Shown here: in pieces, positions 41,682 through 55,956 of the stretch
How the letters are laid out: each line of letters starts with the position of its first letter
Position numbering within the stretch: the stretch's first letter is position 1
Sequence record: ON528740
Length of the DNA stretch: 64,000 nucleotides
DNA from: Shigella phage ESh30
Strand: one strand, 5' to 3'
Translations under genes and position numbers: made by a program
Notes under the pieces: model-generated
Seen by the model: the letters and a program-made list of their open reading frames with translations, nothing else
What the model was told of the DNA's origin: nothing
Databases searched by the model: none

Positions 41682-41735
41682 GTTTACAAGTCCCTCGTGT
41701 TGTGTTACAGTAGTCTTACTGACATAACATGAGGA
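41682..41735 (+). promoter_or_regulatory. early promoter / 5' UTR module, copy A of a 54-bp near-identical repeat (other copy 55903..55956)
   Basis: gtttacaagtccctcgtgttgtgttacagtagtcttactgacataacatgagga; 1 mismatch to copy B. Confidence 0.6.
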
Positions 41736-41742
41736 CTTTATG

Positions 41743-42246
41743 ATGGATTTGCAGCTAATTACTACTGAAATGGTCGTTGAAGCATACGGTGATACTACAG
41801 ATGGGATTTCTGTATTTAAAGGAAACCGTCGAGTTGGATATATCACCGATCTTAAGAAAGATTTAGCTAAGCAAGTCAAGCGGAAAACGACCATTAAAGA
41901 ATATCGAAATCGTCGTCTTGAGCAAGCCCGTGATATGCTTCCTGATGCGGTTGAAGAGATGAAAGTCTTTTTAGAAAATCAGCTTGCGAAATATGATTGT
42001 GATGTATTTATTAATCAGACTCAACCTAATGTTCATATCAATAGTTGTAAATGCTATATCATCGTTAATCCTTTGACTGGAAAGCATCGTCTTGGAATTA
42101 GTAATCCAAATCGTAGTGCATCGGATATGGCAGAAGATGTTGAGGCATGCTTTAAAATTTCTAAATCTCCAGCTGAACATCATATTTTAATTAACGGTCT
42201 TTCTCAAGACGATATTATAGAGGTTATTAAAACTTTATGCATGTAA
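41743..42246 (+). CDS. alc: Alc, inhibitor of host transcription elongation on C-containing DNA (167 aa)
   Basis: MDLQLITTEMVVEAYGDTTDGISVFKGNRRVGYITDLKKDLAKQVKRKT...; position after rnlA as in T4. Confidence 0.8.
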   Translation: MDLQLITTEMVVEAYGDTTDGISVFKGNRRVGYITDLKKDLAKQVKRKTTIKEYRNRRLEQARDMLPDAVEEMKVFLENQLAKYDCDVFINQTQPNVHINSCKCYIIVNPLTGKHRLGISNPNRSASDMAEDVEACFKISKSPAEHHILINGLSQDDIIEVIKTLCM

Positions 42247-42590
42247 GTAATTTTACAGCTGGATTGCTATTACTTGTAATAGCATTTGGCGGAACATCTA
42301 TTATTTTAAAAAATAAGGTAGAAAGATTAGAAACATCAGTTACTGAAATTACAAAAACGGCCAATGAAAACGCCTTAGCATTAAATAATTTGCGAATTCA
42401 GTATAATTATATTGATGCGATGAATAATAAAAATCGTGAGGCAATTGCTGCTATTGAGCGTGAAAATGAAAAACTGCGCAAAGATGCAAAGAAGGCGGAT
42501 GTGGTGGCTCATAAGCCAGGATTGGTTGAAAAACAAATCAACAACTCCTTCAACAAGTTCGCAGAAGACATCCAGGACCTTTCTAAATGA
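42237..42590 (+). CDS. hypothetical membrane-anchored protein (117 aa)
   Basis: ORF track; N-terminal TM segment then coiled-coil-like region. Confidence 0.45.
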   Translation: MHVSNFTAGLLLLVIAFGGTSIILKNKVERLETSVTEITKTANENALALNNLRIQYNYIDAMNNKNREAIAAIERENEKLRKDAKKADVVAHKPGLVEKQINNSFNKFAEDIQDLSK

Positions 42591-42886
42591 TTAAACTATC
42601 AGCAGTAATATTATCTATTGGTCTTCTAGTTGGTTGTTCGACAAAGCCTCTAGAAGTAAAGAAAGAAACAGTTCATCCTAATTGGCCTGTACAAATAAAG
42701 TCATATGACGAAGCTAAATTATCTTGGCAAGTTAAAGTTATTGATGGTAAAGCTTGGGTCGGTATGCCATTTGAAGATTCTCAGGAATTTCGTATTTGGC
42801 TTAATGATGTAAAACGATATGTACACGACCAGAAAACTATGATATGTTATTATCGTCAAGAGTTAAAAGAGGATAAATGTAAATGA
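42587..42886 (+). CDS. predicted lipoprotein (99 aa)
   Basis: MIKLSAVILSIGLLVGCSTK signal peptide + lipobox. Confidence 0.5.
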   Translation: MIKLSAVILSIGLLVGCSTKPLEVKKETVHPNWPVQIKSYDEAKLSWQVKVIDGKAWVGMPFEDSQEFRIWLNDVKRYVHDQKTMICYYRQELKEDKCK

Positions 42887-43110
42887 TTTCATGGCATCAA
42901 TTTGAACATCTCAAAGGATTGATTTATGAATCCGAGATGGCTGCAATGATTTATGGACGCCAGATTCAGCGATTAGAATCTTTACCTCCAACTAATGATG
43001 TTTTATTAGCTCAATCACGTGCTAATCTTAAAAATGAATACCAAAATAAGTGGGGCAAAGCATCTAAAGATCTGCATGATTATATTCAATCATTAGTTGA
43101 GAAAAAATAA
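42883..43110 (+). CDS. hypothetical protein (75 aa)
   Basis: ORF track. Confidence 0.45.
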   Translation: MISWHQFEHLKGLIYESEMAAMIYGRQIQRLESLPPTNDVLLAQSRANLKNEYQNKWGKASKDLHDYIQSLVEKK

Positions 43111-44335
<1,225 letters not shown>

Positions 44336-44336
<1 letters not shown>

Positions 44337-44533
44337 TGGCTTGGCACCATGAAACTTGGGCTATTGTTATTGTAAATAGCAGTTTAGTTGGTACTAGTAA
44401 TGGGCAATTTTGTGTATTTACTAGTGAAAATAGAGCATGGGAGGAATGCCTTAAATTAAGAGAAAAGAATCCTGATGTTGAACTAGTAGTAAAGAAAACT
44501 AAACTGCCTTTACCATGGAAAACGTATGAATAA
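44336..44533 (+). CDS. hypothetical protein (~65 aa)
   Basis: ORF track 44306..44533 trimmed to ATG 44336. Confidence 0.4.
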
Positions 44534-44726
44534 CCTAGAAAAGATTTATCGTCTTTGTGATAAAATTGAAAAAGAAAAGAAATATCTATTTTGTCTATGG
44601 CCTATTGTTGACGGAAGAGTAGGCCTAGATGTTCTTGATTATGAAACAGAAGACAAAGTAGATGGCGCAACTTTTGATAACGCTTTGGATGTTATTGATT
44701 GGCTCGAAGAAAATTATGTGAGGTAA
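44526..44726 (+). CDS. hypothetical protein (66 aa)
   Basis: ORF track. Confidence 0.4.
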   Translation: MNNLEKIYRLCDKIEKEKKYLFCLWPIVDGRVGLDVLDYETEDKVDGATFDNALDVIDWLEENYVR

Positions 44727-44728
44727 AT

Positions 44729-45004
44729 ATGTTTCCGACTTACTCTAAAATCGTAGAAGTAGTGTTTAGCCAAATTATCGCTAATAATATGTTTGAAAAA
44801 CTTGATAACGCAGCTGAGCTTCGAATCCACGCTCAAGTGACTCATGTATTGAACACTTTGCTTCCAGACCAGGTGGATTCTATTGCCATTACGTTGTATC
44901 CAGGTTCCGCGCATATCATTGTTGTATTCGGTCTTGATGCTGAGCTAGTTATCAAAGGCGACATTCGCTTTGAATCTCAAACTGCGGAATTCAAAGCGAT
45001 TTAA
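44729..45004 (+). CDS. hypothetical protein (~91 aa)
   Basis: ORF track 44699..45004 trimmed to ATG 44729. Confidence 0.4.
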   Translation: MFPTYSKIVEVVFSQIIANNMFEKLDNAAELRIHAQVTHVLNTLLPDQVDSIAITLYPGSAHIIVVFGLDAELVIKGDIRFESQTAEFKAI

Positions 45005-45006
45005 TG

Positions 45007-45045
45007 GTTTACTTTACGGTAGAGTTGTGATATTATAGCTCTACC
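45007..45045 (+). promoter_or_regulatory. T4-type early promoter with -10 (TATTAT) inside hairpin ggtagag/ctctacc
   Basis: gtttactttacggtagagttgtgatattatagctctacc. Confidence 0.55.
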
Positions 45046-45066
45046 AAAACAAATGAGGAAATTGAA

Positions 45067-45594
45067 ATGAGCGAATGGTTTGAAGAAGATAAGGTTTATC
45101 GCTTTAAAACTGGGTATAAAGATATTTTTAATGAAACTTGCGGGGCTAATAAACGAATCGCCCAGTTTATTGGGGAAAATTCATTTAAAGTAAAAATTGA
45201 CCCTGCAAAGAATGTTATTAGCATTAAACGTGAAATTGATGATTGTTGGTATAAAGCTGTTGATGTAATGGGTGAATCCTATAAAGTTAGCCCGTTATTT
45301 TCAATTGCTTATATGTTAGAATATTCTTTTTTCGAAGAAGTTCAAAAAGATGATTCTGTAAGTAAATTTGAAATTAAAACTGATAAAGAAATTAAGTGGA
45401 AAGTAGTAGGTATTACTGGTTGTATGTTTTATATCTATGCTCAAACTGATACGAAGGAAGAAGCTAAAAAGAAAGCTCTAGAATATCTTGAAGAGTATGA
45501 AGAAGGCCCGGTAATGATTACTCAAGATGCTGAATTAGTTTCTGTCAAATTAGTTAAAAACGTTGAAAGTAAGGAGCTGGGATCAACATGCTAA
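45067..45594 (+). CDS. hypothetical protein (175 aa)
   Basis: ORF track. Confidence 0.5.
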   Translation: MSEWFEEDKVYRFKTGYKDIFNETCGANKRIAQFIGENSFKVKIDPAKNVISIKREIDDCWYKAVDVMGESYKVSPLFSIAYMLEYSFFEEVQKDDSVSKFEIKTDKEIKWKVVGITGCMFYIYAQTDTKEEAKKKALEYLEEYEEGPVMITQDAELVSVKLVKNVESKELGSTC

Positions 45595-45824
45595 GTGAAA
45601 AACCAATTACTGTTAAAGAATTCCAAGAAAAAGTTAAACTATTTGCTCAGGAATTGGTAAATAAGGTTTCTGAACGATTTCCTGAAACATCGGTTCGTGT
45701 TATTACCGAAACTCCTCGTTCAGTATTAGTAATTGTGAATCCAGGTGATGGTGATCAAATAACACATCTCAAATTGGATTTTGATGGATTAGTTGAAGCA
45801 CAAAGGGTGTATGGCGTACTATGA
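45588..45824 (+). CDS. hypothetical protein (78 aa)
   Basis: ORF track. Confidence 0.45.
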   Translation: MLSEKPITVKEFQEKVKLFAQELVNKVSERFPETSVRVITETPRSVLVIVNPGDGDQITHLKLDFDGLVEAQRVYGVL

Positions 45825-46159
45825 TGAATTTAACTGATATAATTAATAATTGTCTTGAAAATGATACTGGCGATCATAGAGCGCTTGACTCTGACACAGC
45901 ACAGTTCATTAGAATAACTTTAATGAATGACACTCTAGTGAATAGTATTCATCCTTCTGTGTATGATGCTATTATTGTGACGAAGTATCCTGTTGAGCTT
46001 CACAAAAAGATGGTTGGTGCAATTTTTATTGATAAGAAAAACCGCTTTAAAGATGGGCAGAATATAATTAGTTCTGTTATTAAAAGTATAACTAAACTTC
46101 GTCACGAAATTTATCGTGTTGAAACTGCTAAATCTGCTTATCTGGTGATTATGAAATGA
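45821..46159 (+). CDS. hypothetical protein (112 aa)
   Basis: ORF track. Confidence 0.45.
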   Translation: MMNLTDIINNCLENDTGDHRALDSDTAQFIRITLMNDTLVNSIHPSVYDAIIVTKYPVELHKKMVGAIFIDKKNRFKDGQNIISSVIKSITKLRHEIYRVETAKSAYLVIMK

Positions 46160-46737
46160 AAGCGAGTACAGTACTTCAAATTGCATATTTAGTATCACAA
46201 GAATCAAAATGTTGCTCCTGGAAGGTAGGAGCAGTAATTGAAAAGAATGGACGTATTATTTCTACTGGGTATAATGGTTCACCCGCAGGAGGTGTGAACT
46301 GTTGTGATTATGCTGCTGAGCAAGGTTGGTTGCTAAATAAACCTAAACATACTATCATTCAAGGTCATAAGCCTGAATGCGTATCATTTGGTTCAACTGA
46401 TCGTTTTGTTTTGGCGAAAGAACATCGTAGTGCTCACTCGGAATGGTCATCTAAAAATGAAATTCATGCTGAACTAAATGCAATTTTGTTTGCTGCACGA
46501 AATGGTTCTTCTATTGAAGGTGCTACTATGTATGTAACACTTTCTCCTTGCCCAGATTGCGCAAAAGCGATAGCTCAATCTGGTATTAAAAAGCTGGTTT
46601 ATTGTGAAACATACGACAAAAATAAACCTGGTTGGGATGATATTCTGCGAAATGCAGGTATTGAAGTGTTTAATGTTCCTAAGAAAAACTTGAATAAGTT
46701 AAACTGGGAAAATATCAACGAATTCTGCGGTGAATAA
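46156..46737 (+). CDS. cd: dCMP deaminase (193 aa)
   Basis: MKASTVLQIAYLVSQESKCCSWKVGAVIEKNGRIISTGYNGSPAGG...HAELNAILFAARNG...TLSPCPDCAKAI zinc-dependent deaminase motifs (HAE, PCxxC); recognised as T4 Cd. Confidence 0.92.
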   Translation: MKASTVLQIAYLVSQESKCCSWKVGAVIEKNGRIISTGYNGSPAGGVNCCDYAAEQGWLLNKPKHTIIQGHKPECVSFGSTDRFVLAKEHRSAHSEWSSKNEIHAELNAILFAARNGSSIEGATMYVTLSPCPDCAKAIAQSGIKKLVYCETYDKNKPGWDDILRNAGIEVFNVPKKNLNKLNWENINEFCGE

Positions 46738-46973
46738 TGAAATTTCGTTTGGTAAAGCTCACAGCAATTAGTTCTTATTCTAACGAGAACATTTCATTTG
46801 CTGTAGAGTATAAGAAGTATTTTTTCTCTAAATGGAAGCAGTATTATAAGTCAAACTGGGTTTGTATTGATAGACCACATAGTTGGAAATCTGATTTAGA
46901 AAAATGCCAAAAATTACTTTCCACTCTTAAAGAACGTGGAACAACTCATATTAAAACTGTAATAGGTAAATAA
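46737..46973 (+). CDS. hypothetical protein (78 aa)
   Basis: ORF track. Confidence 0.45.
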   Translation: MKFRLVKLTAISSYSNENISFAVEYKKYFFSKWKQYYKSNWVCIDRPHSWKSDLEKCQKLLSTLKERGTTHIKTVIGK

Positions 46974-47282
46974 ATGAAACTGACGACTGAACAAAAAGTA
47001 GCAATTCGTGAAATTTTGAAAACTAAATTGTCCATGGGTGTTTCAAACGTAGTTTTTGAAAAGTCTGACGGTACTATTCGTGTTATGAAAGGTACTCGCG
47101 ACGCGGACTTTATGCCAACCATGCAAACTGGCAAATTGACTGAATCTACTCGGAAAGAATCTACTGACATGATTCCGGTATTTGATGTTGAGCTTGGTGC
47201 ATGGCGAGGTTTTTCTATTGACAAATTGATTTCCGTTAATGGTATGAAAGTTGAGCATTTGCTCCAATTTATTGGTAAATAA
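46974..47282 (+). CDS. hypothetical protein (102 aa)
   Basis: ORF track. Confidence 0.45.
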   Translation: MKLTTEQKVAIREILKTKLSMGVSNVVFEKSDGTIRVMKGTRDADFMPTMQTGKLTESTRKESTDMIPVFDVELGAWRGFSIDKLISVNGMKVEHLLQFIGK

Positions 47283-47338
47283 ATGCTTTAAGAATTATTT
47301 GTTATTATTAATTCATCTGTTAACAAAAAGGAAAAACG

Positions 47339-47674
47339 ATGTCTGAAGTACAACAGTTACCAATTCGTGCTGTCGGTGAATATGTTATTTTAGTTTCTGA
47401 ACCCGCACAAGCCGGTGATGAAGAAGTTACAGAATCAGGACTTATTATCGGTAAACGTGTTCAAGGTGAAGTTCCTGAACTGTGTGTAGTTCACTCTGTC
47501 GGTCCTGATGTTCCTGAAGGTTTCTGCGAAGTTGGTGATTTGACTTCTCTTCCAGTTGGTCAAATTCGAAATGTTCCGCATCCTTTTGTAGCTCTGGGTC
47601 TTAAGCAGCCAAAAGAAATTAAACAAAAATTCGTTACTTGTCACTATAAAGCTATTCCGTGTCTTTATAAGTGA
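47339..47674 (+). CDS. 31: co-chaperonin gp31 (GroES-like, capsid folding), 111 aa
   Basis: [68 protein letters not shown]... recognised as T4 gp31. Confidence 0.93.
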
Positions 47675-47675
47675 T

Positions 47676-47683
47676 ATAAATAA
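47676..47683 (+). promoter_or_regulatory. possible T4 late promoter TATAAATA between 31 and rIII
   Basis: Exact TATAAATA on + strand; about 140 nt from rIII start so assignment is tentative. Confidence 0.35.
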
Positions 47684-47821
47684 TAATATGAATTGGGTGT
47701 CGGAATAATAAGTTAACCGAACAATTCTATGTGGTAGTCTACAACTGAGAGATCTGTCGAAAGAAGATGAAATTCAGAAGAACGTGACTACCGAGTTTTA
47801 ATCTCTAACGAGAATTTTTAA

Positions 47822-48070
47822 ATGATTAAACAATTACAACACGCTCTTGAACTGCAACGAAACGCATGGAATAATGGTCACGAAAACTATGGCGCATCTA
47901 TTGATGTTGAAGCCGAAGCTCTTGAAATCCTGCGTTATTTCAAACATCTGAATCCTGCTCAAACTGCATTAGCTGCTGAGCTTCAGGAAAAAGATGAACT
48001 TAAATATGCTAAGCCTCTGGCTTCTGCTGCACGAAAAGCAGTTCGTCACTTTGTGGTAACACTGAAGTAA
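47822..48070 (+). CDS. rIII: rIII lysis-inhibition accessory protein (82 aa)
   Basis: MIKQLQHALELQRNAWNNGHENYGASIDVEAEALEILRYFKHLNPAQTALAAELQEKDELKYAKPLASAARKAVRHFVVTLK recognised as T4 rIII. Confidence 0.9.
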   Translation: MIKQLQHALELQRNAWNNGHENYGASIDVEAEALEILRYFKHLNPAQTALAAELQEKDELKYAKPLASAARKAVRHFVVTLK

Positions 48071-48468
48071 TTTATTGGAGATTCACTGCCTTAGTGTGAG
48101 CTAAAATCGAGGAGCCGTCGAACTGTCTGATTAATGATTTGCGAATCATTATAGTTTTAAGACCCCGGCAGTTTTACGGTGTACCTCTTGAATGTTATTC
48201 TTATAGCGGCAAGTGCATGCTACCCCGAGGTGATGGCCAATCGGGAGTACGCCTCAAGGCCTATATATCCATCAGTATATATCTTATCCTCGAGAAATCG
48301 AACCCGGAACCTTTAAGCTAACGGTGTGCAACAGATAAGAGCTATAAGGTATGATGACGGGTTTATGGTTATCCTGGTCGTTAAATATCAAAAAACCTAT
48401 GTTCCCCTTGAGGGCTTGCGCAGGCAATGCCAATAAGTCCTGCATTTTCATTTAAAAGAGAATTTATA
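48071..48468. other. ~400-bp GC-rich noncoding island with multiple short inverted repeats; candidate structured RNA or decayed element
   Basis: No ORF over 60 aa on either strand except one low-complexity frame; local GC clearly above flanking AT-rich coding; hairpin taatgatt-tgcg-aatcatta at about 48131..48150. Confidence 0.4.
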
Positions 48469-48645
48469 ATGGCAAAACAAGCTAAAGCAAAGAAAGCAGT
48501 TGAAAAGAAAGTTGGTGATTCTAAACGCGCTGGCTACAAGCGTGGGTCGAACTCTCGTATCAATCAAACTGTTGAGAAGATCATGCGCCGAGCACGTGCG
48601 GTTCTTCGAGATGATGCTTCTCGTTTTGGTAAGCAGAAAGCATAA
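48469..48645 (+). CDS. hypothetical basic protein (~58 aa)
   Basis: ORF track 48427..48645 trimmed to ATG 48469; MAKQAKAKKAVEKKVGDSKRAGYKRGSNSRINQTVEK... Confidence 0.45.
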   Translation: MAKQAKAKKAVEKKVGDSKRAGYKRGSNSRINQTVEKIMRRARAVLRDDASRFGKQKA

Positions 48646-48649
48646 GTTG

Positions 48650-48676
48650 AGGACTCCTTCGGGAGTCCTTTTTTAT
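48650..48676 (+). terminator. intrinsic terminator (aggactcc-UUCG-ggagtcct + T7)
   Basis: Perfect 8-bp stem, UUCG loop, TTTTTTATTTT. Confidence 0.7.
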
Positions 48677-48698
48677 TTTCCAAAGATTGCATAAAGTT

Positions 48699-48731: not shown

Positions 48732-48755
48732 CTTACACAAACAAAGGAGAATAAA

Positions 48756-49088
48756 ATGAAAACGATTAATCTGAACGCTGCAGTTAAAACTAAATGCTTC
48801 AATGGTAAATATGATGAAACTATGTGGTTCTTAATGGCAGTTGAAGGTGATATTATTGAAGTAGAAACAACAGAAGGTATGGGAACAGATTTCACCTTTA
48901 CAATTCAAGTTCATAATTTCTTTACTGGTTGGATTTATGAATTGAATACAGTAATCGTTGGAAAAATTGAACAAAATGAATTAGGTGAATGGTATTATGT
49001 TACAGCTCGCCAACGTGCCGAACGCTTAATTGAGAAGATGAAAAAAGTTGGTAAACTTGACATGCAGCATTGGAAAGTAGTAAAATAA
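48756..49088 (+). CDS. hypothetical protein (110 aa)
   Basis: ORF track. Confidence 0.5.
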   Translation: MKTINLNAAVKTKCFNGKYDETMWFLMAVEGDIIEVETTEGMGTDFTFTIQVHNFFTGWIYELNTVIVGKIEQNELGEWYYVTARQRAERLIEKMKKVGKLDMQHWKVVK

Positions 49089-49090
49089 TT

Positions 49091-49130
49091 GTTTACTTTG
49101 GTACAGGATATGATATTATATACCTGTACC
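49091..49130 (+). promoter_or_regulatory. T4-type early promoter with -10 (TATTAT) inside 8-bp hairpin ggtacagg/cctgtacc
   Basis: gtttactttggtacaggatatgatattatatacctgtacc. Confidence 0.55.
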
Positions 49131-49155
49131 GCAATTAAACATCTTGGAGAATAAA

Positions 49156-49521
49156 ATGAACTACATCAACTTTGAACGTAAATATGTTTCTAACGGTATT
49201 GCAGGTTCTATTGATACTATTTGCCTTTGGAAACATCAAAATGGATCAGTATGCGAAATTGAGCAGTATATGACTCCTAATTACGTTTATATGCGATTTG
49301 AAAACGGTATCACGGTTTCAATCACGATGGAAGGTTCCAACTTTAAAATCGCTCTGGATGATGATTTCCGTGAACGCGATTTAGGGACTCATCCTTGCTG
49401 GAATGGCGTTAATCGCAAGCTTTTGGTTAAAACTTGGATTCGTCATATTCTGAGTAACAGAGCTAAACCTGAGCATCTTGAAGCAATCTTTGATGTAGTT
49501 CTTAACGAATTTGATATTTAA
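49156..49521 (+). CDS. hypothetical protein (~121 aa)
   Basis: ORF track 49144..49521 (TTG) trimmed to ATG 49156. Confidence 0.45.
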   Translation: MNYINFERKYVSNGIAGSIDTICLWKHQNGSVCEIEQYMTPNYVYMRFENGITVSITMEGSNFKIALDDDFRERDLGTHPCWNGVNRKLLVKTWIRHILSNRAKPEHLEAIFDVVLNEFDI

Positions 49522-49528
49522 AATAAAT

Positions 49529-49544
49529 GAGGGGCTTTGGCCCC
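49529..49544 (+). promoter_or_regulatory. stem-loop aggggc-tttg-gcccct
   Basis: GC inverted repeat between ORFs. Confidence 0.4.
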
Positions 49545-49561
49545 TTACTGAGGAAAATGTT

Positions 49562-49849
49562 ATGTTTATGACTACTTATTTTGATACCCGTAAAAACTTC
49601 TGCGAAGTAGTTTTCTCAAAGGCGCCTAAAGACCTTCCTGCACATTTGCAACCTATCAGTGAATCGATTAAAAACTACGTTAATGTAGTCTGCCCTTTAG
49701 AGTTCCGTACTGTAAATGGGCGCGATACTTTAGCTATCACTAAACTCAATCGCGAAATTGACATTGATCCCTCAATTGCACGTGAAATTAATAGTTCTGA
49801 TATTAATGGCGGTAATGTTAAATCGCACGGTTTTCAGATGAGGTTTTAA
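49562..49849 (+). CDS. hypothetical protein (~95 aa)
   Basis: ORF track 49511..49849 trimmed to ATG 49562 after RBS gaggaaaat. Confidence 0.45.
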   Translation: MFMTTYFDTRKNFCEVVFSKAPKDLPAHLQPISESIKNYVNVVCPLEFRTVNGRDTLAITKLNREIDIDPSIAREINSSDINGGNVKSHGFQMRF

Positions 49850-50046
49850 TGAAATTCTTTTTAGGTCAAACTGTTGAATTAAAGGGAGTTGGTATACCTG
49901 GATTAATTTCTAAGGTTCTACCTCCGTTTAAATGGAGTGGTATTCAAATAAAAGAGGCTTATATTGTTTTCTGGGTAGATGGAAATGAAGACCTTCGTAT
50001 GGGTGATGAATTATCTCCTATCTACGGATTAAAGGAAATAGTATGA
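49849..50046 (+). CDS. hypothetical protein (65 aa)
   Basis: ORF track. Confidence 0.4.
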   Translation: MKFFLGQTVELKGVGIPGLISKVLPPFKWSGIQIKEAYIVFWVDGNEDLRMGDELSPIYGLKEIV

Positions 50047-50249
50047 ATATAATTAATAAGATTTTTGGAATTCAGTACATTAAGGTCACATATAAAGTAA
50101 CAGATAAAAATCCGTATACTGATGAACATGAAGAACCGCAAGTTGAGTCTATTATATTAGAAAAGGACCCTAACTGGCCAGTTGAATTTCGTCTTCCTTG
50201 CTATGGTCATTGGGCTGATGTTGAAATTATAAGCATTGAAAATGTCTGA
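50043..50249 (+). CDS. hypothetical protein (68 aa)
   Basis: ORF track. Confidence 0.4.
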   Translation: MNIINKIFGIQYIKVTYKVTDKNPYTDEHEEPQVESIILEKDPNWPVEFRLPCYGHWADVEIISIENV

Positions 50250-50700
50250 GTTAGAGATTAGAAGCAATTTTAGGTGGCCATCATGTGCATTAAGTAATTT
50301 CGCCCATTGGCCTTTCGTTATGGATGGCATTCAATTTGGAGGTCTTGAAGGATTCCTCCAAGGATGCAAAGTGAAAAATGTTGAACAACAACGTCGTATA
50401 TTTGGGTTATCCGGGCTTGCCGCCCAACAAGCTGGAAGGTCTTATGCAAGAGCTCAGGACCGTGGGACCCTCTTCTGGCTTGGAGTTCCATTTTCAAGAT
50501 ACTCCCCGGCGTGGAAAGAATTATACACAAATGCATATTTTGAAGCAGCGATCCAAAACAAGGGCTTCCGTGATGCATTACAAGCCTCGAAAGGAAAAGT
50601 TTTGAAGCACAGCATGGCTAGTGGTCTAACAAAAGATGATACAATACTAACCGAAGCTGAATTTATTGATGTGTTAAACCTATTAAGAGACTCTCTATGA
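50242..50700 (+). CDS. NADAR / YbiA-like (DUF1768-type) domain protein (~152 aa)
   Basis: Motif block SNFAHWPFVMDGIQFGGLEGFLQGCK resembles the conserved SNFAAWP...DG...E.FQ..K signature of E. coli YbiA-type NADAR domains; locally GC-rich, giving spurious overlapping ORFs 50318..50578(-) and 50378..50605(+). Confidence 0.55.
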   Translation: MSELEIRSNFRWPSCALSNFAHWPFVMDGIQFGGLEGFLQGCKVKNVEQQRRIFGLSGLAAQQAGRSYARAQDRGTLFWLGVPFSRYSPAWKELYTNAYFEAAIQNKGFRDALQASKGKVLKHSMASGLTKDDTILTEAEFIDVLNLLRDSL

Positions 50701-51527
50701 AGCCTACTATTTTAACTGATATTGATGGAGTATGTTTAAGCTGGCAATCAGGCCTTCCTTATTTTGCTCAGAAATATAATCTTCCGTTAGAACATATTTT
50801 AAAAATGATCCAGGATGAGAAATTTATTTCTCCTGGTAAACTATTTAATTGCGATGAAGAACTTGGCGTTAAGCTAATTGAAAAATACAATCGTTCGGAT
50901 TTTATTCGATACTTGTCTCCATATAAAGATGCCCTGTGTGTAATTAACAAATTAAAAGAAGATTATAATTTTGTAGCTGTTACAGCATTGGGTGATTCTA
51001 TTGACGCTCTGCTGAATCGTCAATTTAATTTGAATGCTCTTTTTCCTGGTGCCTTCTCAGAAGTACTGATGTGTGGTCATGATTCTTCAAAAGAAGAGTT
51101 GTTCAAAAAGGCAAAAGAAAAATATAACGTAATTTGTTATATTGACGATCTCGCTCACCACTGCGATCACGCAAGTGAAATATTAAATGTTCCGGTTTAT
51201 TGGATGGCTCGAGGAGAGCGTGACAATATTCCAAAAACTGCGCAGCGAGTTTATACATGGAATGATGTAGAAAATAAGCTTTTTTCGCCGAAGGAAAATA
51301 AAGAAAGTTTTGATAGTGAAAAAGCTATAAAAGATTTAATTGAGAAGATGGTTAAAAACGATTCTTTTCCTTGGAACACTACCTGGAGAACGCCTGGATT
51401 TAATCCTTATAATCATCCATATCAGACACATCCGTTTCAGACATGGAACTATATTAAACCTGGTGGCATAGAGTATTTGTATAATAGACCTACTTGTGGT
51501 GATAATATTTTCCAAGGAGCATTCTAA
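50697..51527 (+). CDS. HAD-superfamily hydrolase-like protein (276 aa)
   Basis: N-terminal motif ILTDIDGV (HAD motif I, DxDxV). Confidence 0.5.
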   Translation: MKPTILTDIDGVCLSWQSGLPYFAQKYNLPLEHILKMIQDEKFISPGKLFNCDEELGVKLIEKYNRSDFIRYLSPYKDALCVINKLKEDYNFVAVTALGDSIDALLNRQFNLNALFPGAFSEVLMCGHDSSKEELFKKAKEKYNVICYIDDLAHHCDHASEILNVPVYWMARGERDNIPKTAQRVYTWNDVENKLFSPKENKESFDSEKAIKDLIEKMVKNDSFPWNTTWRTPGFNPYNHPYQTHPFQTWNYIKPGGIEYLYNRPTCGDNIFQGAF

Positions 51528-51796
51528 TGTTTGTTGTTCACACTATTTATGAAAATGAAGGTAATACTACACGTGATTACGGTCACGTAAATCAATTTTT
51601 TAGATGTAATCCAGAATTCCGAGCTCAAAAAGACGAACGAATTTTTAAAAAATGTGTAGAGCAAGGTTTCATTTACGTTAAGCACTGGATGCAAGGAAAT
51701 AAAGTTAGAACTACATATCATAAGTCTTTGCCTGAGCTTAATGATGAATTGATTTATAATAGAGCTGTAAACCAAACCTTGAAGGATGAGCAATGA
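51527..51796 (+). CDS. hypothetical protein (89 aa)
   Basis: ORF track; ATG overlaps upstream stop. Confidence 0.45.
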   Translation: MFVVHTIYENEGNTTRDYGHVNQFFRCNPEFRAQKDERIFKKCVEQGFIYVKHWMQGNKVRTTYHKSLPELNDELIYNRAVNQTLKDEQ

Positions 51797-53256
51797 TTCT
51801 TAAAATTCTGAATGAAATAGCATCTATTGGATCAACTAAGCAGAAGCAAGCAATTCTTGAAAAGAATAAAGATAATGAATTGCTTAAACGAGTATATCGT
51901 CTGACTTATTCTCGTGGGTTACAGTATTATATCAAGAAATGGCCTAAACCTGGTATTGCTACCCAGAGTTTTGGAATGCTGACTATTACCGATATGCTTG
52001 ACTTCATTGAATTCACGTTAGCTACTCGGAAATTGACTGGAAATGCTGCAATTGAGGAATTAACTGGATATATCACTGATGGTAAAAAGGATGATGTTGA
52101 AGTTTTGCGTCGGGTGATGATGCGAGACCTTGAATGCGGTGCTTCAGTATCTATTGCAAACAAAGTTTGGCCAGGTTTAATTCCTGAACAACCTCAAATG
52201 CTTGCAAGTTCTTATGATGAAAAAGGCATTAATAAGAATATCAAATTTCCAGCCTTTGCCCAGTTAAAAGCTGATGGAGCTCGGTGTTTTGCCGAAGTCA
52301 GAGGTGATGAATTAGATGATGTTCGTCTTTTATCACGAGCCGGTAATGAATATCTAGGATTAGATCTTCTTAAGGAAGAATTAATCAAAATGACCGCTGA
52401 AGCCCGCCAGATTCATCCAGAAGGCGTGTTAATTGATGGCGAATTGGTATACCATGAGCAAGTTAAAAAGGAGCCAGAAGGCCTAGATTTTCTTTTTGAT
52501 GCTTATCCTGAAATTAGTAAAGCCAAAGAATTCGCCGAAGTAGCTGAATCACGTACTACTTCTAATGGAATCGCTAATAAATCTTTAAAGGGAACCATTT
52601 CTGAAAAAGAAGCTCAATGCATGAAGTTTCAGGTCTGGGATTATGTTCCATTGGTAGAAATATACGGTCTTCCTGCATTTCGTTTGAAATATGATGTACG
52701 TTTTTCTAAACTAGAACAAATGACATCAGGCTATGATAAAGTAATTTTAATTGAAAACCAGGTAGTAAATAACCTAGATGAAGCTAAGGTAATTTATAAA
52801 AAGTATATTGACCAAGGTCTTGAAGGTATTATTCTCAAAAATATCGATGGATTATGGGAAAATGCTCGTTCAAAAAATCTCTATAAATTTAAAGAAGTAA
52901 TTGATGTTGATTTAAAAATTGTAGGAATTTATCCTCACCGTAAAGACCCTACTAAAGCGGGTGGATTTATTCTTGAATCAGAGTGTGGAAAAATTAAAGT
53001 AAATGCTGGTTCAGGCTTAAAAGATAAAGCCGGTGTAAAATCGCATGAACTTGACCGTACTCGCATTATGGAAAACCAAAATTATTATATTGGAAAAATT
53101 CTAGAGTGCGAATGTAATGGTTGGTTAAAATCTGATGGCCGCACTGATTACGTTAAATTATTTCTTCCGATTGCGATTCGTTTGCGTGAAGATAAAACTA
53201 AAGCTAATACATTCGAGGATGTATTTGGTGATTTTCATGAGGTAACTGGTCTATGA
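51793..53256 (+). CDS. 30: ATP-dependent DNA ligase (487 aa)
   Basis: MILKILNEIASIGSTKQKQAILEKNKDNELLKRVYRLTYSRGLQYYIKKW... with adenylation lysine motif KADGAR; recognised as T4 DNA ligase. Confidence 0.95.
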   Translation: MILKILNEIASIGSTKQKQAILEKNKDNELLKRVYRLTYSRGLQYYIKKWPKPGIATQSFGMLTITDMLDFIEFTLATRKLTGNAAIEELTGYITDGKKDDVEVLRRVMMRDLECGASVSIANKVWPGLIPEQPQMLASSYDEKGINKNIKFPAFAQLKADGARCFAEVRGDELDDVRLLSRAGNEYLGLDLLKEELIKMTAEARQIHPEGVLIDGELVYHEQVKKEPEGLDFLFDAYPEISKAKEFAEVAESRTTSNGIANKSLKGTISEKEAQCMKFQVWDYVPLVEIYGLPAFRLKYDVRFSKLEQMTSGYDKVILIENQVVNNLDEAKVIYKKYIDQGLEGIILKNIDGLWENARSKNLYKFKEVIDVDLKIVGIYPHRKDPTKAGGFILESECGKIKVNAGSGLKDKAGVKSHELDRTRIMENQNYYIGKILECECNGWLKSDGRTDYVKLFLPIAIRLREDKTKANTFEDVFGDFHEVTGL

Positions 53257-53441
53257 AAGCTTACTTAGAAACAATTGTCGTGGCTCAAAAAGAAGGTGGA
53301 GATGTTTCTACTTCTGTATCACAAGTCATTCTCGAATTTGTAGATGCATACGCTTATAATAAATTTACAGAAACATTTGATGCCTATGAAAAAGGACCAA
53401 AGTTTGAAATATATCGTACTCTCTTACCACTAGATTACTAA
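53253..53441 (+). CDS. hypothetical protein (62 aa)
   Basis: ORF track; ATGA-coupled to ligase. Confidence 0.45.
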   Translation: MKAYLETIVVAQKEGGDVSTSVSQVILEFVDAYAYNKFTETFDAYEKGPKFEIYRTLLPLDY

Positions 53442-53456
53442 AGGCCTTCGGGCCTT
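53441..53456 (+). terminator. stem-loop aaggcc-UUCG-ggcctt
   Basis: Same hairpin sequence as at 5044..5062. Confidence 0.5.
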
Positions 53457-53462
53457 TAATTT

Positions 53463-53470
53463 TATAAATA
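53463..53470 (+). promoter_or_regulatory. T4 late promoter TATAAATA upstream of alt
   Basis: Exact TATAAATA about 23 nt upstream of alt start; alt encodes a virion-packaged protein in T4. Confidence 0.6.
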
Positions 53471-53493
53471 GAATAAACACTAGAGAGGCTATG

Positions 53494-55542
53494 ATGGAAC
53501 TTATTACAGAATTATTTGACGAAGATACTACTCTTCCGATTACAAACTTAAATCCAAAGAAGAAAATACCGCAAATTTTTTCAGTTCATGTTGATGATGC
53601 AATTGAACAACCAGGCTTTCGTTTATGTACCTATACATCTGGAGGTGATACTAATCGCGATTTAAAAATGGGCGATAAAATGATGCATATTGTTCCTTTT
53701 ACATTAACTGCTAAAGGTTCAATTGCTAAATTAAAAGGTCTTGGTCCAAGCCCAATTAATTATATCAATTCAGTTTTTACTGTTGCAATGCAAACAATGC
53801 GTCAGTATAAAATTGATGCTTGTATGCTTCGTATTCTTAAGTCTAAAACCGCTGGTCAAGCTCGACAAATTCAAGTTATTGCTGATAGACTTATCCGTAG
53901 TCGTTCAGGTGGCAGATACGTCCTTCTTAAGGAACTCTGGGATTACGATAAAAAGTATGCATATATTCTTATACATCGCAAAAATGTATCACTAGAAGAC
54001 ATTCCAGGGGTTCCGGAAATTAGTACCGAGCTCTTTACTAAAGTTGAATCGAAGGTCGGTGATGTTTATATCAATAAAGATACTGGAGCTCAAGTAACTA
54101 AAAATGAGGCAATTGCAGCATCTATTGCACAAGAAAATGATAAACGTTCTGATCAAGCTGTAATCGTTAAAGTTAAAATTTCCCGTAGAGCAATTGCACA
54201 AAGTCAGTCGTTGGAATCTTCTAGATTTGAAACACCGATGTTTCAAAAATTTGAGGCTTCAGCGGCAGAATTAAATAAACCAGCGGACGCTCCTTTAATT
54301 TCTGATTCTAATGAATTAACGGTAATTTCTACTTCAGGATTTGCACTAGAGAATGCTCTTAGCAGTGTTACAGCTGGGATGGCATTCAGAGAAGCTTCTA
54401 TAATTCCTGAAGATAAAGAATCCATTATTAATGCAGAAATAAAAAATAAAGCTTTAGAAAAATTACGAAAAGAATCTATTACTTCAATAAAAACTTTAGA
54501 AACTATTGCTTCTATCGTCGATGATACTTTAGAAAAATATAAAGGTGCTTGGTTTGAAAGAAATATTAACAGACATTCGCATTTAAACCAAGATGCTGCA
54601 AATGAGTTAGTACAAAATTCTTGGAATGCAATAAAAACAAAGATTATTCGAAGAGAATTACGTGGATATGCTCTTACCGCTGGATGGTCATTACATCCTA
54701 TAGTCGAAAATAAAGATTCATCTAAATACACACCAGCACAAAAACGCGGAATTCGTGAATACGTAGGTTCAGGATATGTAGACATAAATAATGCTCTTTT
54801 GGGATTATATAATCCAGATGAGCGTACAAGTATTTTAACAGCACCTGAAATAGAACAAGCCATTGATAATTTAGATTCAGCCTTTAAAAATGGTGAACGA
54901 TTACCAAAAGGTATTACTTTGTATCGTTCACAACGAATGTTACCTTCAATATACGAAGCAATGGTAAAAAATCGAGTTTTTTATTTTAGAAACTTTGTGT
55001 CAACATCATTATATCCAAATATTTTTGGTACTTGGATGACTGATTCATCTGTGGGTGTTTTACCAGATGAAAAGCGTCTAAACATTTCTATCGATAAAAA
55101 TGATGAAGGGCTTGTTAATTCTAGCGATAATTTAGTCGGAATTGGATGGGTTATTACTGGGGCTGATAAAGTCAACGTTGTTTTACCCGGTGGAAGTTTA
55201 GCGCCTTCAAATGAAATGGAAGTCATTTTGCCACGTGGATTAATGGTCAAAGTTAATAAAATAACTGATGCATCTTACAATGATGGAACAGTCAAAACTA
55301 ACAACAAGCTTATTCAAGCTGAAGTTATGACCACCGAAGAACTCACCGAATCAGTAATTTATGACGGTGACCGTTTAATGGAAACCGGCGAAGTAGTTAC
55401 AATGACAGGTGATATAGAAGATAGAGTTGACTTTGCATCATTTGTTTCATCAAATGTTAAACAGAAAGTAGAATCATCTCTTGGAATTATTGCGTCTTGC
55501 ATAGATATTGCAAACATGCCTTACAAGTTCGTTCAAGGATAA
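53494..55542 (+). CDS. alt: ADP-ribosyltransferase Alt (682 aa), modifies host RNA polymerase
   Basis: MELITELFDEDTTLPITNLNPKKKIPQIFSVHVDDAIEQPGFRLCTYTSGGDTNRDLKMGDKMMHIVPF...; length and position between 30 and 54 as in T4. Confidence 0.88.
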   Translation: MELITELFDEDTTLPITNLNPKKKIPQIFSVHVDDAIEQPGFRLCTYTSGGDTNRDLKMGDKMMHIVPFTLTAKGSIAKLKGLGPSPINYINSVFTVAMQTMRQYKIDACMLRILKSKTAGQARQIQVIADRLIRSRSGGRYVLLKELWDYDKKYAYILIHRKNVSLEDIPGVPEISTELFTKVESKVGDVYINKDTGAQVTKNEAIAASIAQENDKRSDQAVIVKVKISRRAIAQSQSLESSRFETPMFQKFEASAAELNKPADAPLISDSNELTVISTSGFALENALSSVTAGMAFREASIIPEDKESIINAEIKNKALEKLRKESITSIKTLETIASIVDDTLEKYKGAWFERNINRHSHLNQDAANELVQNSWNAIKTKIIRRELRGYALTAGWSLHPIVENKDSSKYTPAQKRGIREYVGSGYVDINNALLGLYNPDERTSILTAPEIEQAIDNLDSAFKNGERLPKGITLYRSQRMLPSIYEAMVKNRVFYFRNFVSTSLYPNIFGTWMTDSSVGVLPDEKRLNISIDKNDEGLVNSSDNLVGIGWVITGADKVNVVLPGGSLAPSNEMEVILPRGLMVKVNKITDASYNDGTVKTNNKLIQAEVMTTEELTESVIYDGDRLMETGEVVTMTGDIEDRVDFASFVSSNVKQKVESSLGIIASCIDIANMPYKFVQG

Positions 55543-55545
55543 ATC

Positions 55546-55931
55546 ATGGAACTTATTACATAATTATTTGACGGCGCTTCGGCGCCGGTTATTAACTTAA
55601 ATCCTAAGCATAAAATACCACAAATTTTTGCTATTCAAGCCGGCGAAGAAAGCGTGCTTCCTGGATTTAGATTTTGTACATACACCTCTGGCGGTGATAC
55701 AAATAAAACGTTAAACCAGGCGATAAAATGATGCATATCGTAATGATAGGTGTTAATGAGAAACTATCATTAGTTAAGCTTAAAAACTTGAGTGGAAATC
55801 CAATTGGTGTCATTAATGCTGTTTTTGATACTGCTCTTCAAACAATGAAACAGTATAAAATCGACGCATGCCTATTACGCGTACTAAAAAGTTCAAAATG
55901 TAGTTTACAAGTCCCTCGTGTTGTGTTATAG
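55546..55931 (+). pseudogene. disrupted partial paralog of the alt 5' region (nonsense codon at codon 6 and a 1-nt deletion); distal part is a 67-aa ORF
   Basis: atggaacttattacaTAA... aligns to alt atggaacttattacaGAA...; downstream frame MMHIVMIGVNEKLSLVKLKNLSGNPIGVINAVFDTALQTMKQYKIDACLLRVLKS parallels Alt residues 64-120. Confidence 0.6.
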
Positions 55932-55956
55932 TAGTCTTACTGACATAACATGAGGA
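55903..55956 (+). promoter_or_regulatory. early promoter / 5' UTR module, copy B of the 54-bp repeat (copy A at 41682..41735)
   Basis: gtttacaagtccctcgtgttgtgttatagtagtcttactgacataacatgagga. Confidence 0.6.

Follow-up and report, generated by a model that had tools for sequence, protein, structure and literature searches.

Why should a phage carry one promoter and leader sequence twice, in front of two genes some 14 kb apart? In the 64,000-nucleotide stretch of Shigella phage ESh30 (ON528740) analysed here, which we call the window and which derives from a Tequatrovirus (the T4 genus), the sequence GTTTACAAGTCCCTCGTGTTGTGTTAYAGTAGTCTTACTGACATAACATGAGGA occurs at 41682-41735 (Y=C) and again at 55903-55956 (Y=T). 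Both copies lie on the + strand as direct repeats separated by 14,221 bp, and they are identical at 53 of 54 positions. None of 100 dinucleotide-preserving shuffles contained a match to the 54-bp repeat, even with up to three mismatches, so that no such pair is expected by chance. This confirms the near-identical repeat reported in a preliminary description of this DNA. Its placement of one copy upstream of alc also holds; the other, which it assigned to the ORF after alt, lies in front of alt.-3, which is not the ORF adjoining alt. The identity ends abruptly on both sides, the flanks being unrelated upstream (ggatactaagct and gttcaaaatgta) as well as downstream (ctttatgatgg and acacaaaatg).

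The two copies and their surroundings

The features of the two loci are as follows.

40554..41678, + strand: rnlA (T4 gene 63; annotation), whose transcripts read into copy 1; its start is taken from the Sf21 annotation offset (L001 position + 23999)
41682..41735, + strand: repeat copy 1, the alc early promoter/leader cassette, the ancestral copy (same architecture upstream of alc in eight genera)
41683..41711, + strand: copy 1 promoter, with -35 TTTACA (41683-41688), 17-nt spacer, TG at -15/-14 and -10 TACAGT (41706-41711)
41693..41705, + strand: copy 1 hairpin 5' arm, CCTCGTGTTGTGT, within the promoter spacer
41722..41735, + strand: copy 1 hairpin 3' arm, ACATAACATGAGG, including the Shine-Dalgarno (SD) sequence GAGGA (41731-41735)
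41743..42246, + strand: alc, host transcription inhibitor, served by copy 1 (Pfam ALC, 4e-92; annotation)
53463..53470, + strand: late-promoter motif TATAAATA, about 20 nt before the alt ATG (motif search)
53491..55542, + strand: alt, RNA polymerase ADP-ribosyltransferase, upstream of copy 2 (annotation)
55543..55931, + strand: remnant of a second Alt paralogue (alt.-1/alt.-2-like), with the alt start repeated at 55543-55573 (T4 notes)
55903..55956, + strand: repeat copy 2, the alt.-3 early promoter/leader cassette, the derived, Tequatrovirus-specific copy (an ordinary, different promoter in outgroups)
55904..55932, + strand: copy 2 promoter, with -35 TTTACA, 17-nt spacer containing TG and -10 TATAGT
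55914..55926, + strand: copy 2 hairpin 5' arm (folding prediction)
55943..55956, + strand: copy 2 hairpin 3' arm with SD GAGGA at 55952-55956 (folding, SD accessibility)
55964..56254, + strand: alt.-3 homologue, DUF5498 (Pfam profile match), served by copy 2
56259..56280, both strands: terminator-like hairpin between alt.-3 and gene 54, the end of copy 2's transcription unit

The repeat had been described as a promoter and 5'-UTR module, and its elements bear this out: -35 TTTACA, a 17-nt spacer, TGn, -10 TAYAGT and the SD sequence GAGGA. The promoter matches 9 of 12 consensus positions in copy 1 and 10 of 12 in copy 2, each with the TG, and transcription is predicted to start at about A41718, judging from the -10 spacing, and at about A55939. 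GAGGA stands 7 nt upstream of the annotated ATG in both cases, and in alc another ATG, in frame, follows it after 4 nt. As originally claimed, the identity from the -35 to the ribosome-binding site exceeds what promoter consensus accounts for: the seven members of the early-promoter family in the window are 60-78% alike over 58 nt and have unrelated spacers and leaders, whereas the two repeat copies share 98% identity over the span from -35 to SD.

The rnlA stop is at 41678 and the alc ATG at 41740/41743; copy 1 occupies the interval in between, in which no terminator-like site was called. Copy 2 adjoins a locus that varies, the second alt paralogue being either intact, as annotated in Sf21, or truncated. 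The last ORF of the remnant in the window (alt.-2-like, 67 aa, 55728-55931) ends inside copy 2, and its TAG stop codon (55929-55931) contains the single mismatched base of the repeat. Further upstream, a terminator-like hairpin at 53439-53458 precedes the alt late-promoter motif, which is the likely source of late transcripts reading through copy 2.

A predicted hairpin between promoter spacer and Shine-Dalgarno sequence

The preliminary description missed a long hairpin that pairs the promoter spacer with the SD sequence, and this pairing is the likely reason why the identity has to span the whole region from -35 to ribosome-binding site. In each copy the sigma-70 early promoter (-35, TGn, -10) lies within a nearly perfect stem of about 18-22 bp, whose 5' arm is the spacer and whose 3' arm is the leader covering the SD, with the -10 and the start site enclosed. 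In the alc context the stem reaches further out, to AAGTCC (41689-41694). Predicted minimum free energies (MFE) are -23.3 to -28.6 kcal/mol for copy 1 (z -4.2 to -4.6) and -22.0 to -23.3 kcal/mol for copy 2 (z -4.5 to -5.4), and in neither case was any of 200 shuffles as stable.

Since the 5' arm sits in the promoter spacer, it is present only in RNA started upstream. In such read-through RNA the predicted cost of opening the SD is 7.4 (alc) and 11.6 (alt.-3) kcal/mol, the probability that it is unpaired is 0.02-0.10 and that of its pairing to the spacer is 1.0, compared with opening costs of 0.9 (alc) and 1.5 (alt.-3) kcal/mol in RNA from the predicted start site; all these values, for structure as for accessibility, come from thermodynamic prediction, which takes no account of co-transcriptional folding or of ribosomes present on the upstream ORF.

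Natural variation within Tequatrovirus, a shallow genus of 95-99% identity, is consistent with maintenance of the pairing. The 3' arm and SD are invariant across the 29 copies examined, and an SD opening cost of at least 9.0 kcal/mol is kept in 18 of 18 natural haplotypes; one triple-substituted haplotype costs 14.0 kcal/mol to open, compared with a mean of 6.3 (90th percentile 9.7) for random triples. Three of four transition sites in the lower stem retain pairing (G.U/A-U or C-G/U.G), and pairing is lost at G18A (one genome) and at two C-to-A transversions in a redundant CCC run. Furthermore, the Tequatrovirus hairpin is 6-10 kcal/mol more stable on the sense than on the antisense strand. 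This bias is limited to the genus, the arms in other genera being Watson-Crick paired and folding equally well on either strand. Rfam covariance-model searches gave no match at either copy, even at E<=1, and the late-promoter motif TATAAATA was absent from both in a motif search.

The same design is found upstream of alc in eight genera (Tequatro-, Jiaoda-, Gelderland-, Dhaka-, Karam-, Braga-, Kanagawa- and Winklervirus; outgroups were sampled at one genome per genus), with the -10 in the hairpin loop in all eight. The arm sequences differ among these genera and co-vary. RNAalifold on the eight alc leaders returned 12 pairs, nine with compensatory changes. The covariation score is 0.527 against 0.254 +/- 0.05 for shuffles (0/500 reaching it) and at most 0.241 for slid registers. 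Duplexes between a genome's own spacer and own leader average -20.6 kcal/mol against -11.6 for cross-genus pairs, and the own combination is best in 7 of 8. Neither the Mosig-like phage NHEP11 nor Gaprivervirus, where an additional ORF lies in between, has this design before alc, and in Tegunavirus and phage PSTCR6 a hairpin forms around the -10 and leaves the SD free. Hence SD masking upstream of alc is common, not universal.

Distribution and origin of the alt.-3 copy

The repeat is present in 997 copies in 499 phage records, two per genome and always upstream of alc and alt.-3. It is genus-wide in Tequatrovirus, T4, T2 and T6 included, with 13-16 kb between the copies and a conserved intervening gene order that includes genes 30 and 31. 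The possibility, raised in the preliminary description, that this module is the standard early-promoter sequence genome-wide does not agree with the count of just two per genome.

The suggestion that one cassette was copied from the other is upheld. In seven outgroup genomes from six genera the alt.-3 promoter is ordinary and unrelated; its spacer forms a small hairpin, and the MFE fold leaves the SD unpaired (opening cost 0.6-3.6 kcal/mol, computed for four of the seven). Because the alc design occurs in eight genera and outgroup alt.-3 has this ordinary promoter with a free SD, sequence comparison identifies the alc cassette as ancestral and the alt.-3 copy as derived in the Tequatrovirus ancestor. 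The copying was not recent, as had been supposed: both copies are in all 499 matching Tequatrovirus-type records, so it predates the radiation of the genus. The alt.-3 flanks are common to Tequatrovirus and outgroups as far as the -35 and again from the SD on. A patch of about 38 nt of the alt.-3 promoter, from the -35 (GTTTACA) to the SD (ACATGAGGA), would then have been overwritten with alc sequence, most likely by conversion of a short patch or by template switching, with these two microhomologies as anchors.

Since then the copies have been kept alike by selection on promoter and hairpin, and probably also by occasional gene conversion between the loci. No fixed difference separates them; sites 16, 29 and 32 are polymorphic at both loci, and an A29-A32 haplotype is found at both. 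This common polymorphism suggests later gene conversion and is what argues for an ongoing process, and the change from TATAGT to TATAAT could also recur under selection. Copies differ at 2.43 positions within genomes against 2.65 between genomes, which is not significant (permutation p=0.25). The repeat had also been proposed as a homology tract for rearranging the intervening 14 kb. Homologous exchange between direct repeats cannot invert that interval, and its deletion would not be viable because genes 30 (DNA ligase) and 31 (co-chaperonin), both essential in established T4 genetics, would be lost. The only survivable exchange would be non-reciprocal, and the shared polymorphism suggests that such exchange does take place.

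Function, alternatives and known systems

The reading that we favour, and consider rather probable, is that the repeat is one cassette present twice, an early promoter set in an SD-hiding hairpin, transplanted to alt.-3 from alc. RNA begun at the embedded promoter (+1 at about 41718 or 55939) would lack the 5' arm and leave the SD free for translation of alc or alt.-3. RNA derived from upstream, that is from the transcription unit ending in rnlA at copy 1 and from the alt late promoter at copy 2, would contain both arms and fold, locking the SD. Read-through transcripts would thus probably have a hidden ribosome-binding site, and translation of the downstream gene would be tied to initiation at its own immediate-early promoter. 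In T4, alc and alt.-3 are early in RNA and protein, alt and the rnlA protein are late, and Alt.-2 protein was not detected (PMC9697503).

The stem-loop could instead terminate or attenuate upstream transcription and so shield alc and alt.-3 from it, SD pairing being a side effect of its position. The stem-loops of PeSL (promoter-early stem-loop) cassettes are reported either to occupy the interval from -35 to -10 or to overlap the latter (Arbiol et al. 2010, PMC2839356), and one from PeSL211/210 of RB49 acted as a terminator in a lacZ assay (PMC2839356). Termination would equally explain why T4 alt.-3 is early though alt is late, and it is compatible with SD masking. However, the 12 terminator-like sites called in 41000-57000 include neither copy, and no U-run follows the stem at either (tails CUUUAUGA and AACACAAA); copy 2 runs on as AACACAAAAUG, and the eight genera as UAUUGAAA, UUAACAAU, AAACAAAA and similar, all free of a U-tract. 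The co-varying part, moreover, is the SD complement at the very start of the spacer, for which a plain terminator would have no need, and we regard termination as unlikely to be the main function. Translational coupling, in which the SD on polycistronic RNA is opened only by ribosomes ending the upstream ORF (rnlA, alt paralogue, alt.-2) and the downstream gene is kept in step with the upstream one instead of being silenced, would fit an upstream stop codon 0-12 nt from the -35 in every genus. It would also fit the alt.-2 remnant ORF, which ends in the copy 2 loop both here and in T4; ribosomes translating it would open the copy 2 hairpin, which counts against an SD block there. Yet a ribosome with a stop codon in its A site unwinds only a few nucleotides past the stop, and the extended stem begins about 11 nt beyond the rnlA stop in this window. 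The T4 timing of Alc and Alt.-3 relative to RnlA and Alt is the reverse of coupling and Alt.-2 goes undetected, which together make this account quite improbable.

An RNA processing or stability element, whether a site of RNase III-type cleavage that parts the upstream and downstream messages or a hairpin protecting the 3' ends of rnlA and alt mRNA, would suit a nearly perfect stem that lies exactly at gene boundaries and falls within the sizes known for RNase III substrates. In several genera, however, the stem measures only 9-13 bp, short for RNase III, and it is SD complementarity and not stem length that is conserved; we give this reading a very small probability. Least credible, and hardly probable at all, is that the structure has no function, the likeness reflecting only common ancestry and the purifying selection that a strong promoter is under, with an incidental inverted repeat, or, in a variant, a DNA cruciform or recombination hotspot. 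The arms outside Tequatrovirus are indeed equally stable on either strand, and high similarity in so shallow a genus needs no special force. Against this, the spacer, normally unconstrained in sigma-70 promoters, co-varies with the SD across eight genera, and most 5'-arm transitions in Tequatrovirus exchange standard and G.U wobble pairs, which works only in sense RNA.

The favoured SD-hiding cassette can be set beside three known systems. Ordinary T4 early promoters consist of UP element, -35, TGn and -10 (PMC2988021), and the cassette resembles them in its GTTTAC -35, 17-nt spacer, TGn and TAnnnT -10. PeSL cassettes of T4-type phages are repeated within a genome and proposed to recombine, which inverse PCR shows in RB49; their stem-loops are short, often with a G-run and C-run, are interpreted as terminators, and are placed upstream of the promoter in descriptions of PST/T4 (PMC2839356; Comeau et al. 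2014, PMC4122927). Like PeSLs, the repeat is a compact intergenic module with a sigma-70-like early promoter, an overlapping or adjoining stem-loop and an SD and start codon on the 3' side, and the outgroup alt.-3 promoters with their small spacer hairpins resemble typical PeSLs. In contrast to PeSLs, its stem spans spacer to SD and encloses the -10 and start site, the obvious effect being on translation of read-through RNA. Instead of the many copies in hyperplastic regions, each of the 499 records holds just two. In the window these are 14 kb apart and flank essential genes and not a shuffled ORFan, and no mini-circle or indel with the pair as its endpoints was observed.

The third system is provided by T4 genes e, soc, 49 and I-TevI, in which the SD is paired in long upstream transcripts and RNA from an internal promoter, lacking the 5' arm, is translated; neither alc, alt.-3 nor any early-promoter case appears in the review of these hairpins (PMC3014915). 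The logic is the same, an SD-sequestering structure with a promoter inside. Their promoter is late (TATAAATA) and delays translation until late, whereas that of the 54-bp cassette is immediate-early sigma-70, and the predicted effect is the reverse of the gene e type, limiting translation to the time of early-promoter activity. It is possible, though we stop short of calling it probable, that T4-like phages possess a portable 'promoter-locked translation' cassette, its downstream gene silent on middle or late read-through RNA and translated only from own-promoter RNA. That wider reading includes conservation of the design, through covariation, before alc in at least eight genera, recurrence with unrelated sequences at other early genes (window positions 1535 and 48700) and transplantation of the whole cassette by short-patch conversion, as at alt.-3 in the T4 genus. 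If true, early genes would be under a general and hitherto undescribed level of temporal control that mirrors the late switch of gene e.

The repeat pair and its setting

The 54-mer GTTTACAAGTCCCTCGTGTTGTGTTAYAGTAGTCTTACTGACATAACATGAGGA is present twice in the window, at 41682-41735 (Y=C) and 55903-55956 (Y=T), with both copies on the + strand, the direction of T4 early transcription, and a spacing of 14,221 bp. The pair is real and far beyond chance, with no match in 100 shuffles when 3 mismatches were tolerated. The flanks of the two copies are unrelated both upstream and downstream, and hence the repeat is sharply bounded at the -35 hexamer and at the final base of the Shine-Dalgarno sequence (SD). 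The window belongs to Tequatrovirus, the T4 genus, and its alc neighbourhood is 100% identical to that of Shigella phage Sf21 and 97-99% identical to those of T4, T6 and many others.

Features at the two copies
41682-41735, + strand: copy 1, which fills the 61-nt gap from the rnlA stop (41678) to the first alc ATG (41740)
41743-42246: alc as annotated, Pfam ALC
55903-55956, + strand: copy 2
55964-56254: alt.-3 homologue (DUF5498), with copy 2 upstream

The genes between the copies are alc, the spanins, pseT, cd, 31, rIII, 30 and alt, in an order kept in every genome examined. Copy 2 overlaps the 3' end of a 67-aa ORF, an alt.-2-like remnant of a second Alt paralogue, whose TAG stop contains the one mismatched base. 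The first 31 nt of alt recur at 94% identity right after the alt stop (repeat D13, 53491-53521 versus 55543-55573), where the decayed second paralogue starts (55543-55931, alt.-1/alt.-2 as in T4); an undecayed version of about 685 aa is present in Sf21, T2, RB51, DalCa, EP01, UFV10 and 11B. The window is thus T4-like here yet Sf21-identical at alc, and therefore mosaic.

A sensitive BLAST search with the 54-mer against 50,697 phage records found 997 places in 499 records at 92.6-100% identity, with exactly two places in every record among the matches listed, T4, T2, RB51 and phiD1 included. The window's remaining early promoters group only loosely (family D1), at 60-78% likeness. The search for further copies suggested in the preliminary description thus returned two per record listed, and together with the lower likeness of the other promoters this rules out a generic sequence standing at many early promoters. 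That description had read the pair as a recently copied regulatory cassette and as a potential tract for deleting or inverting the interval. Copying of a cassette is borne out; a recent duplication is ruled out, as both copies occur in all 499 matching records, and the copying must be older than the Tequatrovirus radiation. Inversion fails because the repeats are direct. Deletion fares no better, since with a reciprocal crossover 13-16 kb would be lost or doubled, genes 30 and 31 included. By established T4 genetics these two genes are essential, so that only non-reciprocal events could persist. The structure that best explains identity from the -35 through to the RBS had been overlooked in the earlier reading.

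A predicted hairpin joining promoter spacer and leader

Both copies fit a strong sigma-70 promoter (TTTACA, 17-nt spacer, TG, and TACAGT or TATAGT), and each contains a long hairpin. Positions 12-24 in the spacer, CCTCGTGTTGTGT, form a 5' arm (which includes CTCGTGTTG) that pairs with a 3' arm at positions 41-53, ACATAACATGAGG, in the leader and including the SD, and an apical stem of 4-5 bp closes over part of the -10. The fold has a predicted energy of -22 to -29 kcal/mol (z -4.2 to -5.4), which none of 200 shuffles equalled. The -10 sits in the loop region, and consequently a transcript of the embedded promoter (predicted +1 at about 41718 or 55939) begins 3' of the 5' arm. The C/T mismatch (41708/55929) is a polymorphism rather than locus-specific: among 14 genomes, just three have C at alc (the window, Sf21 and a G8-like contig); C gives a weaker -10 (TACAGT versus TATAGT) and a stronger apical stem (C-G versus U.G).

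Opening the SD is predicted to cost 7.4 (alc) and 11.6 (alt.-3) kcal/mol in RNA begun 150 nt upstream, compared with 0.9 and 1.5 kcal/mol in RNA from the predicted embedded start site. Over the full length from SD to AUG the predicted values are about 13.5 kcal/mol in read-through RNA, which starts upstream of the cassette and contains both arms, and 2-4 kcal/mol from the embedded start. A cassette function in which translation would be locked to the embedded promoter is well supported by prediction and by the covariation described below. Among other accounts of the hairpin, an intrinsic terminator is not supported, neither copy being called terminator-like, and no known RNA family was recognised, with no Rfam match at either copy even at E<=1.

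From the sequence, upstream transcription into both copies is plausible. The window scan found no terminator-like site between rnlA and alc. Ahead of alt come a terminator-like hairpin (53439-53458) and, after it, a late-promoter motif, TATAAATA (53463-53470), so that late alt transcripts should cross copy 2 and end at the 56259-56280 terminator. At the latter site a 9-bp GC-rich hairpin, ATGGGGACCGAAAGGTCCCCAT, terminator-like on both strands, lies between the convergent alt.-3 and 54. T4 omics data place alc and alt.-3 early, for RNA as well as protein; alt and the RnlA protein are late, and alt.-1 and alt.-2 protein were not detected (PMC9697503). This timing fits an active early promoter at each copy with no late translation downstream, and is not proof of the mechanism.

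Of 11 extended -10 early-promoter cassettes in the window, four have a probability of 1.0 that the SD is paired to the spacer. Two of these are the repeat copies and two (1535, 48700) have unrelated arms, which suggests that spacer-SD pairing is a recurring trait of T4 early promoters.

Other cassettes and hairpins in the window
1535-1598: cassette, GTTTACTTCCTCGGTTAG...CTACTGAGGA, -23.7 kcal/mol, before a 166-aa ORF with no Pfam match
48700-48760: cassette, ...GGTTCCTTTGTG...CACAAACAAAGGAG, -12.5 kcal/mol, before gp30.8
45008-45075 and 49092-49165: early promoters with a hairpin around the -10 only, SD free
5044-5069, 10553-10578 and 53440-53465: UUCG-tetraloop terminator hairpins (D7 repeats)
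10316-10341 and 10544-10569: UUCG-tetraloop terminator hairpins (D19 repeats)

The -10-only hairpin is the same variant as that before alc in TG1 and PSTCR6. The near-identical UUCG-tetraloop hairpins (AAAGGCCTTCGGGCCTTTA, AAGGGCTTCGGCCCTT) mark several junctions between genes, and the 53440 hairpin directly precedes the alt late-promoter motif. Many early promoters, in outgroup alt.-3 upstream regions and at window 6932 and 11424, carry a spacer mini-hairpin between -35 and -10 with a loop of roughly A(A/T)GGA(A/T) (CCACAAGGATGTGG, ACACATGGATGTGT, TCCACATGGAAGTGGA, CACACGGAAGTGTG); the loop is kept across genera while the stems differ, and these structures resemble the stem-loops of the classic promoter-early stem-loop (PeSL) cassettes of T4-type phages. 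Upstream of the gp30.8 promoter, 48601-48684 gave a sub-threshold Rfam match to the Rhizobiales sRNA Atu_C8 (31.4 bits versus a gathering threshold of 50, E=0.006), which overlaps two terminator-like hairpins and is most likely due to chance.

Covariation, variation and origin of the alt.-3 copy

The alc upstream region was fetched and folded for one phage per genus in several genera. Eight genera share the same layout, namely GTTTACA, immediately an SD-complementary 5' arm, the -10, and a 3' arm with the SD, and the arm sequences vary from genus to genus.

Hairpin arms upstream of alc (genus: 5' arm; 3' arm)
Jiaodavirus: TCCTCATCAG; CTGATGAGGA
Gelderlandvirus: TCTCCGTTTAGTT; AACTAAACGGAGA
Dhakavirus: TCTCCTCAT; ATGAGGAGA
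Karamvirus: TCTCCATTTG; CAAATGGAGA
Bragavirus: AACCTCTCATTTT; AAAATGAGAGGTT
Kanagawavirus: ATCCCATTTTGTT; AACAAAATGGGGAT
Winklervirus: TCCTCATTTCGTT; AACGAAATGAGGA

From a plain MAFFT alignment RNAalifold derived 12 pairs, of which 9 show compensatory double changes, and 80% of cells pair on this structure compared with 65.6% in shuffles. The covariation score of 0.527 (shuffled, 0.254 +/- 0.05) was reached by none of 500 shuffles, and slid registers scored at most 0.241. When promoter halves were combined with leader halves, own pairs gave -20.6 and foreign pairs -11.6 kcal/mol, the own pair being best in 7 of 8 genera. The exceptions to the layout are the Mosig-like phage NHEP11, with a small spacer hairpin only; Tegunavirus TG1 and Providencia phage PSTCR6, with a hairpin around the -10 and the SD free; and Gaprivervirus, with an extra ORF between rnlA and alc. 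This 77-aa ORF, in VR7 (257-490 of the fetched region) and TH55, carries the annotation of a second 'inhibitor of host transcription' and may have arisen by partial duplication of alc; it comes with a terminator and promoter of its own, and an SD-covering hairpin downstream of the -10.

Variation within Tequatrovirus was followed in 29 copies, both from 14 genomes and one from a fifteenth (slur04 contributed one copy only), including IMG/VR additions of 10 loci from 5 sources picked by their 3'-arm pattern. Positions 41-54 (3' arm and SD) are identical in 29/29 copies, of which those from the five genomes found by that pattern are silent on 3'-arm invariance. Variable sites are confined to the 5' arm, the -10 or the loop. 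Three of the four lower-stem transition sites stay paired in sense RNA (G16A, G.U to A-U; C13T and C15T, C-G to U.G), as does C11T in the extended stem (C-G to U.G); a pair is lost with G18A (one genome) and with two C-to-A transversions in a redundant CCC run. Each of the 18 distinct locus-specific haplotypes has a predicted SD opening cost of at least 9.0 kcal/mol. For the triple-substituted haplotype T11/T15/A16 at alt.-3 (Sf21, T2 and one IMG/VR contig) the prediction is 14.0 kcal/mol, compared with a mean of 6.3 and a 90th percentile of 9.7 kcal/mol for random triples in the arm. The Tequatrovirus sense strand is 6-10 kcal/mol more stable than the antisense strand; this bias is absent in the other genera folded, so the strand argument holds for Tequatrovirus only, and sense/antisense stability was rejected as a general test of RNA versus DNA structure.

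The alt.-3 promoters of seven outgroup genomes from six genera (Jiaoda-, Gelderland-, Dhaka- (two), Mosig-like, Moon- and Karamvirus) are all ordinary early promoters with a small spacer mini-hairpin, e.g. CCACAAGGATGTGG. Their SD is unpaired in the MFE fold and opens at 0.6-3.6 kcal/mol (computed for four), and in none of the seven does the genome's own alc cassette stand at alt.-3. Dhakavirus has the same alt.-3 flanks as Tequatrovirus, matching exactly as far as the -35 (AAAATGTAGTTTACA) and resuming at the SD (ACATGAGGA). Given these shared flanks and ordinary outgroup promoters, only about 38 nt between the two short homologies were exchanged for alc sequence in the Tequatrovirus ancestor. 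Judged from these comparisons, copying ran from alc to alt.-3, probably by short-patch gene conversion or template switching.

No fixed difference separates the loci (14 genomes plus one copy). Paralogues differ on average by 2.43 within a genome and by 2.65 between genomes, and the means among orthologues are 2.14 (alc) and 2.95 (alt.-3). Sites 16, 29 and 32 are polymorphic at both loci, and both loci carry the linked A29-A32 haplotype. Such shared polymorphism is what conversion between the loci would be expected to leave in a recombining population; the greater likeness within genomes that concerted evolution predicts is not significant (p=0.25, 14 genomes). Alternatively, a shared site could reflect TATAGT to TATAAT recurring by selection for a better -10.

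Relation to known systems

PeSL cassettes are modules of early promoter, stem-loop and SD that recombine (Arbiol 2010, PMC2839356; Comeau 2014, PMC4122927). In RB49 the stem-loop is frequently placed in the -35 to -10 interval or overlapping the -10 (PMC2839356); in PST/T4 its described position is upstream of the promoter (PMC4122927). It has been read as a terminator (PMC2839356, PMC4122927). Long transcripts of T4 e, soc, 49 and I-TevI have the SD masked by a hairpin, and short, translatable ones come from a late promoter within the structure (PMC3014915). All hairpins gating translation by promoter choice in that review of T4 post-transcriptional control use late promoters, and an early-promoter case, alc and alt.-3 are absent from it. 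The 54-mer, alt.-3 with phage T4, and an early-promoter example of such gating all gave no match in the literature searched, a scope outside which lie the classic print compilations of T4 early promoters and the PST/T4 PeSL catalogue.

T4 is the reference system for phage gene regulation, and the overall view of T4 biology is unaltered here. If the predicted early version works, alc-type genes would be confined to the first minutes despite lasting upstream transcription, and the need for copy identity from -35 to RBS would be explained. The pair would also be a clear-cut case in nature of a regulatory cassette transferred from one locus to another via a conversion patch of about 38 nt. At least some PeSL stem-loops may be given a second reading as translational masks, not terminators. 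In composition this element is like PeSL. In mechanism it is like the e, soc, 49 and I-TevI hairpins, but its promoter is early rather than late, and the temporal logic would thus be reversed.
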